Position numbers and translations under genes: made by a program. A stretch of DNA of 63,993 nucleotides, filler included, from Collodictyon triciliatum (lineage: Eukaryota): NCBI GenBank assembly GCA_043381765.1. It is 3 parts of 3 records of this genome, joined end to end, with 100 filler letters (N's around TTAATTAATTAA, not from the genome) between each part and the next. Parts side by side here need not be neighbours in the genome. Positions count along the whole stretch, not along the records: positions 1 to 23,190 come from JBHJMP010001038.1; positions 23,291 to 38,444 come from JBHJMP010001041.1; positions 38,545 to 63,993 come from JBHJMP010001043.1. One strand, written 5' to 3'. Under the pieces are notes generated by a model. That model searched no databases, was not told the DNA's origin, and was given only the letters and a program-made list of their open reading frames with translations. The stretch's first letter is position 1. Each line of letters starts with the position of its first letter. Of the stretch, positions 16,101-51,245 are shown one piece after another.

Positions 16101-19100
16101 GAGCTCTATGGGGATGTTTATCTTGTTATCAAGTAAATTAATATGCAAAATTGCTATAATATCAGCATCTGAATAACTTTCTTTATATTATACAAACTAC
16201 AAAATGAAAGATTTTTAAAAAAAATCATATGCGATAAGTGACCCAACCGCCGTCTACAATGCTCTCAATGAACAAATCCGCGGAAGTTTATGCAGTCAAG
16301 CTTTCCTCGATACCCTTAGGCTTTTCCACAACTTACCGATTGATGCGCATAATGGGTATGCCTTTCTATCAGCTAGGTTTACATAAATATGTATCGAAAT
16401 CCATTTATGAGTTTATATTTTTAATACATGTGGATGCCTGCTGGATGTAGGGTTCCAATGTGGGAGCTTTGTGTGAAGATAGTTAGAGAAATGGGGACAT
16501 GGACTGCAGATGTGATCGCATCAGTTTCAGAAGCAGTAGAAAAGAGTATGGTTATTCCCCTGTGAATCGTGCAAACAAATAAAAGAGTATTTTACCAATA
16601 CACTATTGACTAATTAAAACAGGAATGCTAGCTCATATTTTCATTTTCTCCTTCTTGTGATTCAACTAGACTTTCACTATATCCTCTGTTTGAAATTATG
16701 CTCTTATTGATTGATTATGTTGGAACCAATTGTAGGTGGCAACGGCTTTAATTTATCTAGACTAATTATGGACGGGTATTCAGTCCAAACAAGCTCTTCA
16801 AAGGCACGTGCTTACTACTATTTTCTAACTAGAATTCTCTATGCTCAATTTCATCTCATTCCCATAGCATGGTTATTTCCAGGAGAATTATTTCTGATGG
16901 GTACACCAATATCAGAGTAGCGACCTCGGAAAAACAGTCTTTGCGCAAATGCAAAAGATTAACCAGCTCGAACTCACAATCCAAGAAATGGCCAAGCAGC
17001 TGTCCCTTGACCCAAACCAGCGGACCCCTATCGCCATTCCTGCTCTTACATCGGTATTAGTCATTGAAATAGCATTCTCGCTCTTATTTTTTTCCTTTAT
17101 TCGAAGCATTCTCGCTCTTATGAAAGCTTGAGTTGTCATGTCGCAAATACAATTTTCTCAAGGGTCTTTTAAAGTTAACATTCTCGTTCTCATTTAGGTC
17201 GAAGGTACTTTGGATATTCGTTTTTCGTGCTTGAAATATGCAGTGCCTTTTTATTTACATTTAGTTAAATAAATATATGATTAATTTAAGGAACTGATTT
17301 ATCTGGTCATCCTCCAGGATTTTCACAGGGTTTGGAAGAAAAAATGAAATTCCTTTATTTCAAACAAGAATTTGACGATGCTACTTTAACATTTATTAAA
17401 TGCTAAATAATATTCTTTATAAAAATTTAAAAAAAAATACATCTTAAAGCTCCGCCAGCCCCTGGCTCTGGTTTGTTCTCTATTCATCCCCTTCACCTGA
17501 TAATATTGTTACTAATTTTTTCTATCCATTGCGCAGATGGAGGTTCTTCCGCACCTCCCCCGCCACCGCCACCTGGTGCCAGTGGTAGTTTTCTTCAATA
17601 GAATTCATTCACTTGTATATCGATTTTCTGGAACAGTATTCATTTCACGGAATTATTATTATCCTTTCTTCGATTGTGATCGTATACTTTTTTTACGATG
17701 TGCTTTTTTTCCTTTTTCTACTTTGCGCACATCTTTATACATATTGTATTGTGGAAGTATTTATTGCTTTATTTTTTTATATCATGATAGGAGCACCTCC
17801 ACCACCACCTCCGCCGCCGCCACCTGGAATGGGTTTGCTATTTATCTCTCTTATTACCGATAATGCTTTTTTTTTTCCCATCACACTTCTGTGATAAGCT
17901 TGCTTAATAATAATAAAATAATTATAATGACAATCTCATGAATTGGATTGTAGCATTCCTTTTAAATTTTAAGTGCCATTTTGATGTCTAAAAATATGAA
18001 TAACCCTTGAACACTATAATGTATGCGCATCCATCAGGTATTATTTTTTTACTCTCAAATAGTAATATTACGATTGAAATAGGTGGGCCTCCTCCGCCTC
18101 CTCCACCCCCGGGAATGGGCCCGCCAGGAGCACCACCACCTCCTATGAGTAATATTCATACAAAACACATATGTGAACAAATATATATGCATCTATTATA
18201 TTTCAGAAAGGATAATAGATGAATTAAGAAATTTTATCGATAGTGAAGTTGTCTCTGGTGTCTTCGATTTCTTCCCAAAAAATATTTTATTAATCATGAT
18301 TATTTTTTGAATTCATAGTGGGCCCACCTCCCAAAAAGAGTGTGAAACCTGCCGTCCCTATGAAACCCTTACACTGGTCCAAAGTTGCGGTAAACCCTTT
18401 TCCTACATTTTGAATAAGGAAAAAACGCAAATCAACACCTGCGTTAGCGATTACGATATTAAAGAGAAAATTGTGAAATTATATAGTTTTGAATACATTT
18501 CATCTGCATTTTTCACATGCTAATTCAAATAAAATAAAATAATACGAACGTCACCTTCTGATAATCCAGCCTGTTGCTGTCGATAAGACCGTTTGGAAGA
18601 CAATCACCGATGATTCGACAAAGTTTGACAAGGCCGAGTTCGAATCTTTATTTGCAGTCAAACAAAAGAATAAGCCTGGCTCCGGTTCAAAATTTTCTAT
18701 CAATTAAGAATTACATGTTTCAGACGCATTTCATCGTATTACTGCCCCTCGATTAATAATACTGTAGCTTGTGTATACTCACTATCTTTTTATCTTCTCT
18801 ATTACGCGCCCCCAGAGAGTGATTTGAGTTCCTCTGCATCCCCATCACTTACGGGCCAGGAGCTAAAAAAGAAAGTTGTCGTTTCTCTTCTTGAAAGTCA
18901 ACGTTCGAATAATATCAGTAATATTTATTCTGATATTTATGTATCTGCGTGCTTCTAAATAGACATTTTGTTGTATGCAAATGCACTATTTCAACCTTAA
19001 CAATCTACTAATCCTCTGAATGAAATAAAGATGTTGTGCTGTCTAGATTCAAGATTGGGCTGAAAGAAATCAAGGATGCGATTGTAGGTATTGATGACAA

Positions 19101-50694: not shown

Positions 50695-51245
50695 TTTTCC
50701 CTTTATTCGATTCAAAGTGTAGCGAGGTTATGCCATACAAAGGGGCAAGATAGGTGCGCATGGGAGAGAGCAAACTCGAGTAGGAGAAGACACTACTGTA
50801 GAGAGGGTAGCACTGGAAAGAAGTCAGTGATAGCGAGCTGGTCAGGTGGGCGACCCAACTGGTTGATTGGCTGCATGGGTATCAGGGGTTGGATATGCTG
50901 CGGGAGATATCGCACGACACATTCCCACATCTCTCTTCGCTTGCGGTCAGAGTAGCGAAGAATGCGAACGTGTTTCAGCAGACTGTTCAGGAAGCTGTAT
51001 TACACGAGGCTCTCAAGCCTGGATACATTGACATCCCGTTCGGACGAATCATTAGAGCAAGAGGATGCGCACACACTCCATAAGGACCACAGCATATGTC
51101 CCCTTGTGACTGTCCAGAGTATTCTAGAGTCGTGGGTCATTTGGTATTGTGCGCCAAACAGGATGTCTGACCTGACAGATGTTTCTGAAAAATTTGCAAA
51201 GATACAGTGGTTTCTCGATACCCATCTTTGAAAAGCTCCGTGAGT
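50695..51245 (-). mobile_element. 5'-truncated, decayed non-LTR retrotransposon (L1/Tx1-like) 3' fragment
   Basis: The minus frame reads ...DILFG...RILWTVTRGHMLWSLW..., like the ORF2 tail after zf-RVT. One in-frame TAA at 51002-51000, RPPD near the end, TAG at 50795-50793, and a ~95-nt 3'UTR ending GAATCGAATAAAGGGAAAA. Confidence 0.62.

Follow-up and report, generated by a model that had tools for sequence, protein, structure and literature searches.

Insertions made by L1-type elements through target-primed reverse transcription have a characteristic anatomy, which is also that of the small inserts described here from the genome of Collodictyon triciliatum (assembly GCA_043381765.1). These are four short copies (S1 to S4) of the 3' tip of a family of long interspersed nuclear elements (LINEs), found in one 64-kb stretch of DNA (63,993 nt in three joined parts), the whole of which is referred to as the window. 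Short foreign inserts, of tens of bases and in some cases derived from RNA, are also produced by templated insertion at repaired double-strand breaks. Such insertions are without long target-site duplications and are not confined to the 3' tip of one element, whereas S1 to S3 are flanked by duplications of 13–20 bp. Among L1 copies, the 5'-truncated ones form the commonest class, according to a study that collected duplications of 5–30 bp (PMC2912911). The 5'-truncated insertions of human L1 and its relatives and those of the Collodictyon window have in common 3'-anchored copies, an A-rich tail beside the downstream duplication, duplications of variable length (13–20 bp here), additional bases at the 5' junctions and nested endpoints. 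They differ in that 11–19 nt have been copied here, against the hundreds of bases usually reported, and in that the tails here are very short and partly G-containing, with tiny copies outnumbering longer ones by 4 to 1 in the window. No reverse transcriptase (RT) or endonuclease of the Collodictyon LINE family was seen.

In the human NF1 gene, an L1-endonuclease-dependent insertion of bare poly(T)/poly(A) has been read as an Alu, L1 or processed pseudogene that was 'severely truncated' (PMC3219598). In both cases reverse transcription would have ended almost immediately. The NF1 insertion is one somatic or germline disease allele and consists of homopolymer only, therefore its source RNA cannot be named; in the Collodictyon window there are several events, and the LINE-specific tip names their source. 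A full-text literature search, with most subscription journals outside its reach, returned no account of LINE-tip insertions shorter than 50 nt as a recurrent class.

It is likely, with a probability of about 0.8, that S1 to S3, and probably also S4, which is older, arose by retrotransposition of a single LINE family with extreme 5' truncation, through target-primed reverse transcription. The family has a C-terminal zf-RVT region and a 3' untranslated region (UTR) of about 93 nt, which ends ...ACTTTGAATCGAATAAAGG and is followed by a short A-rich tail. This reading is carried by the anatomy and the flanking duplications of the inserts, their derivation from nothing but the 3' tip, the link between the tip and an open reading frame (ORF) with zf-RVT, and the nested lengths of the copies. 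The process itself is known, and the copies here represent an extreme form of it rather than anything new. Coordinates of the copies and of the associated features are given in Table 1.

Table 1. Positions of the LINE-tip copies, their flanking repeats, the 62-nt insert and the longer LINE copy, counted along the window
Feature	Position	Strand	Description
S1 duplication, left copy, 17 bp	17071-17087		17/17 identical to 17105-17121
S1 insert	17088-17104	minus	TCGAATAAAGG + A6: last 11 nt of LINE 3' UTR, then tail
S1 duplication, right copy, 17 bp	17105-17121		
S4, older tip copy	~22197-22224	plus	16-18 nt of tip, then G4 A5 T
S2 duplication, left copy, 20 bp	33551-33570		19/20 identical to 33594-33613
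S2 insert	33571-33593	plus	one additional G + CTTTGAATAGAATAAAGG + tail AAAT
S2 duplication, right copy, 20 bp	33594-33613		
S3 duplication, left copy, 13 bp	41899-41911		13/13 identical to 41942-41954
S3 insert	41912-41941	minus	5 additional nt TGCGT + ACTTTGAATCGAATAAAGG + tail AGAAAG
S3 duplication, right copy, 13 bp	41942-41954		
13-bp repeats	49255-49267 and 49330-49342	plus	perfect, ACAGGTAAGACCT
62-nt insert	49268-49329	plus	ends in A11
5'-truncated LINE copy, 477 nt	50695-51171	minus	
ORF2 C-terminal coding part	50793-51171	minus	last ~126 codons, one in-frame TAA
3' UTR, 93 nt	50700-50792	minus	ends in motif at 50700
Tail	50695-50699	minus	GAAAA

The five motif sites (the four short copies and one longer copy) are located, with their inserts and repeats, where the original prediction had placed them, and target-site duplications are recognisable in three of the five (17, 20 and 13 bp). 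The target-primed anatomy that had been proposed for three of the inserts is found in S1 to S3, which are anchored at the 3' end, carry the tail against the downstream repeat, have duplications of 13–20 bp and vary in their 5' ends, with additional bases at the 5' junction of S2 (1) and S3 (5). The copied part matches the tip of the element at 11/11 bases in S1, at 17/18 in S2 and at 19/19 in S3. The corresponding matches to a related metagenome contig, L031, are 22/23 for S1 (tip and tail; E 4e-4), 20/21 for S2 (E 0.005) and 25/27 for S3 (E 3e-5). The 20-bp repeats of S2 contain a 15-bp exact core, found in a repeat scan that was blind to the motif. S4 matches at 15/16 tip bases and differs from the 18-mer at 2 positions. 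In three of the four short copies the 5' end (33571, 41936 and ~22197) is 16–19 nt before the tail, the three starting points falling within four bases of one another.

An RCC1-repeat gene on the minus strand contains S3 in one of its introns, in sense orientation, with RCC1 exons at 41329-41703 and 41968-42324. The inserts had been described as scattered through introns; this is the case for S3, and no recognisable exons were found in the surroundings of S1, S2 and S4. Directly upstream of S3, at 41863-41907, an 11-bp repeat (ACAAAAAAATT) around a 23-nt spacer shares the A-run of S3; it may have arisen in an earlier event or simply by chance, the sequence being of low complexity. The sequence following the tail starts AATCA(A/T)T in S3 (41942-41954), in the long copy (50680-50694, minus strand) and in L031 (~85-100, minus strand), which may represent an endonuclease target-site preference or a coincidence.

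The 9-mer GAATAAAGG occurs 5 times in the window against 0.93 expected, and 4 matches to the 18-mer are present where 0.13 would be expected, with as many as 3 mismatches allowed; none of 100 shuffles reaches 5 and 4, respectively. The motif-blind scan for closely spaced direct-repeat pairs across the whole window returned 439 pairs, of which 40 are non-periodic once the periodic pairs are set aside. Six of these have an exact repeat of at least 13 bp, compared with a mean of 0.27 in 30 second-order Markov simulations of the window. The motif is enclosed by three of the six, namely S1, S2 and S3, and the probability that at least three of four motif sites would lie inside such spacers by chance is 2.3e-7.

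Two controls bear on the association of motif and repeats. Within the window, AATAAAGG is present at 10 sites: the five with the LINE-specific upstream extension include three with exact repeats of 13–17 bp, and at the five without this extension no flanking repeat reaches 8 bp. Outside the window, one of 54 distinct 18-mer contexts (116 metagenome loci) has a flanking repeat of at least 9 bp, and this one is AT-rich and low-complexity. The four short copies all come from the last 19 nt plus the tail (P = 2.8e-7 under uniform starts over the 1046 known nt of the element), with no short copy matching any other part of these 1046 nt. A chance origin of the motif and the repeats is excluded.

A further member of the six long repeats, at 40700-40753 (a 19-bp repeat around 8 nt), was considered as a fifth event and rejected as a plain 27-nt tandem duplication, 25/27 identical. 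It was left out because repeat and spacer recur there together as one unit, which is not so in S1 to S3. Repeats of 9–12 bp around A-tailed spacers are no commoner in the window than wrong-end controls (18 against 27). At 16540-16590 there are 10-bp repeats around a 31-nt spacer containing TGAATCG, and at 23576-23642 there are 10-bp repeats around a 47-nt A-tailed spacer. Both are weak candidate retropositions within the range of chance and were not counted, since 9–12-bp repeats are not above the wrong-end controls.

Public sequence matching parts of the window comes from three freshwater metagenome runs only (best share 0.11). A scan of metagenome contigs with the 18-mer identified L031, a contig of 1157 nt that carries the same element; the remaining 115 of the 116 loci are unrelated chance matches, including the initially promising L109, which is the 3' region of another gene. 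About 315 codons of the ORF2 C-terminus (with one frameshift), a zf-RVT match of 32.6 bits (Pfam PF13966, cut-off 27.5 bits), the stop codon, a 3' UTR and tip that are the same as in the window, and an A10 tail are all found on this one contig. When the 1157 nt are used as query, only S3, S1 and S2 match the window at E <0.01 beyond the long copy, all of them mapping to L031 1028-1058, which is the tip and tail; S4 comes next at 15/16.

Just upstream of the matched part, zf-RVT is present in four of the six relatives scanned (P0001, P0002, P0006 and P0009; 27.8–36.4 bits), and it is also present in the longer cluster members P0011 and P0014 (32.3 and 34.1 bits). In the window copy, the truncation point is just downstream of zf-RVT. 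The copied lengths form a nested set of 11, 16–18, 18, 19, 472 and at least 1028 nt with the common end ...AATAAAGG, and directly after this fixed 3' end is an A-rich tail, which is A10 in L031, A6 in S1 and shorter and A/G-rich elsewhere. From these comparisons, identification of the motif as the 3' tip of a LINE-type element, probably L1-like with a C-terminal zf-RVT, is supported. This agrees with the original prediction, zf-RVT being located upstream in the relatives and in L031, which ends in the tip and A10. The longer element that was to be retrieved by way of the window copy was recovered in part: zf-RVT and the same tip are present on L031, and neither RT nor apurinic/apyrimidinic endonuclease (APE) was found in the sequence obtained, which includes nothing from the 5' half of any copy. 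No longer RT-bearing proteins were found with the plus-strand ORF at 50811-51083, P0001 or P0014 as query. A 24-mer of the element has 0 loci in genome and viral contig collections, in which the protein alignment of the relatives likewise found 0 relatives, and no relevant solved structures were found.

The longer copy in the window had been described as a decayed element of ~550 nt at 50695-51245. Its actual extent is that given in Table 1 and it shows little decay, matching L031 ungapped at 446/480 bases (93% identity) with one in-frame stop. The minus frame is open over 50793-51251 apart from the one TAA. When read with X at the stop and compared with a library of 1.84 billion representative proteins, this frame matches 9 proteins, 7 of which are LINE-like short metagenome proteins (E 1.4e-6 to 1.9e-28, at most 95% identity). 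Weak TSP1 matches on the same frame and the proteins P0007 and P0008 were rejected, being due to a chance WSxWS-like string and not to homology. All six proteins aligned to the window in this way start at positions 51161-51170, with the P0011 alignment starting at residue 279 of 359 (tblastn), and one metagenome contig continues into unlike sequence at 51171. This loose end, together with the start of homology at about 51170, identifies the element as a 477-nt 5'-truncated copy rather than one of ~550 nt. By eye, the loose letters at 51171, when reverse-complemented, match the sequence of L031 just upstream and the preceding residues of P0002 and P0011.

Summed contig depth in the region of the element is 167 and 48.6, against mostly 0–10 around it, with several contig variants; this fits a multi-copy element, these depths not being copy numbers. 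A Pfam search gave nothing convincing in any frame of 50684-51350. The plus-strand ORF at 50811-51083 was considered as part of the downstream kinase gene and rejected, having no Pfam family and no homologues, where the minus frame has clear LINE relatives. No Rfam match was found in the window.

A further insert, of 62 nt, lies with its flanking repeats (49255-49342) on a splice acceptor of a CCCH zinc-finger gene. The exon that starts there carries the second CCCH finger of this tandem zinc-finger gene, and zf-CCCH is found on both flanking ORFs. The 13-bp repeat on either side of the insert is made up of the last 4 nt of the intron and the first 9 nt of the exon, and the insertion lengthened the intron from 76 nt (49183-49258) to 151 nt (49183-49333). 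As judged from the reading frame, the downstream acceptor alone would keep the C-x8-C-x5-C-x3-H frame, and splicing at the upstream copy would meet a stop. The duplication would then have supplied the working acceptor. Since only the downstream copy of the duplicated acceptor appears to keep the frame, this case shows independently that the repeats are products of insertion. The source RNA of the 62-nt insert has no second copy in the window and no Rfam match. Judged from its sequence, the insert shows what is probably the same retroposition process acting on another RNA.

In the proposed mechanism, the endonuclease of the element would nick the bottom strand just before a top-strand A, and all four duplications begin with A. 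The freed DNA end would prime on the tail of the RNA, and synthesis would end after copying the last 11–19 nt only. A second nick 13–20 bp away, end-joining (with 1–5 additional bases in S2 and S3) and fill-in would then generate the flanking duplication. We infer both these enzymatic steps and the cause of the early stop: RT may have dissociated, host repair may have resolved the reaction early, or the template may have been trimmed beforehand to its protected 3' end. The original prediction spoke of a LINE that often aborts; aborted synthesis and the copying of a short or degraded template have the same appearance in the present copies and cannot be told apart from them.

The same enzymes might instead have used a discrete short RNA as template, either a SINE-like RNA (short interspersed nuclear element) that shares the tip, or a 3' fragment of the LINE RNA, of ~18–19 nt plus tail, that escapes decay under the cover of the ORF2 protein. 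The clustering of three of the four 5' ends at 16–19 nt before the tail would suit a fixed-length template, or a pause site, better than random dissociation, and hints at a pause site, a fixed-size template or a protected RNA footprint. However, the lengths are not fixed, since S1 has only 11 nt of the tip and there are also copies of 472 and at least 1028 nt. In addition, a search of the window found no separate short element with a 5' part of its own, no fold above those of shuffles that would define the stop is predicted for the 3' UTR (z 0.89 and 0.40), and four events are too few for statistics. A discrete short template is considered rather improbable. It is much less probable still that the inserts are templated patches at double-strand breaks, in which fragments of LINE cDNA (complementary DNA) or RNA were caught by end-joining or polymerase-theta repair without the LINE endonuclease. 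The 1–5 additional bases at the 5' junctions of S2 and S3 are typical of end-joining, and the long copy and S4 are without duplications, as such patches would be. Repair of breaks yields blunt joins, microhomology or deletions, whereas staggered nicks are required for clean duplications such as those seen here (13, 17 and 20 bp), and the four short copies are all derived from the final 19 nt plus tail. Chance similarity or local tandem duplication, with no mobile element involved, has a probability that is close to negligible. One of the six long close repeats, that at 40700-40753, is indeed a tandem duplication, but in S1 to S3 the spacer is not repeated after the second repeat copy, the spacers match the LINE tip on the independent contig L031, and the motif, repeat and spacer statistics given above are against it.

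Several points weigh against extreme 5' truncation of LINE copies as the explanation. The tip could belong to a short non-autonomous RNA. S4 has no recognisable duplication, its best flanking repeat being 6 bp, as had been predicted for a fourth copy at ~22195-22220 without a clear duplication. The long copy is also without a clear duplication and has no flanking repeat of more than 6 bp. The tails (A6, AAAT, AGAAAG, G4A5T and GAAAA) are short and partly G-containing, and so differ from a classical long poly(A). The longest relatives (L031, P0011 and P0014) end ~200 aa upstream of zf-RVT, short of any RT or endonuclease domain, and assignment to the LINEs therefore depends on zf-RVT together with the tail, the duplications and the nested truncations. 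An empty-site allele was not found: metagenome contigs from the freshwater runs were mapped onto 38545-52380, and in this region no contig spans S3, the 62-nt insert or 40700. The whole sample is a single 64-kb window.

Other features of the window are a 2-oxoacid dehydrogenase E1 component gene on the minus strand at 56390-57853 (Pfam E1_dh, E 6e-43 and 3e-42), located in a block of 61.6% GC in a window that is otherwise 33–46% GC; because of this high GC content, long spurious ORFs are open on both strands. The window also has an unusually high density of microsatellites and short tandem arrays (1-96, 1836-1890, 13895-14100, 20281-20400, 23087-23560, 37290-37360, 55895-55990 and 60620-60700). 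Runs of N are present at 23191-23290, 38445-38544 and 52381-52921.

Local effects of the insertions are seen at two places, S3 putting a sense AATAAA inside an intron and the 62-nt event having duplicated a splice acceptor. A broader proposal, which we put forward tentatively and consider doubtful, is that most attempts of this LINE family and of other mobilised RNAs stop at fewer than 25 copied bases, with a preferred stop ~18–19 nt from the tail, and that tip-only insertions greatly outnumber recognisable copies. These would be pervasive indels (insertions and deletions) missed by repeat annotation, duplicating 13–20 bp, scattering AATAAA into introns and able to duplicate splice sites. The original prediction likewise extrapolated to very many events genome-wide, which would make this a hidden mutational process. 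The present sample is clean but small, and the finding would matter more widely only if tiny copies are in excess genome-wide as well. If the 4-to-1 excess of tip-only copies does hold across the genome, then some of the small insertions and local duplications scored in this lineage would be retrotransposon activity, and LINE activity as counted from repeat annotation would be greatly underestimated. The lengths of the copies would then give a natural read-out of how early reverse transcription stops in vivo.

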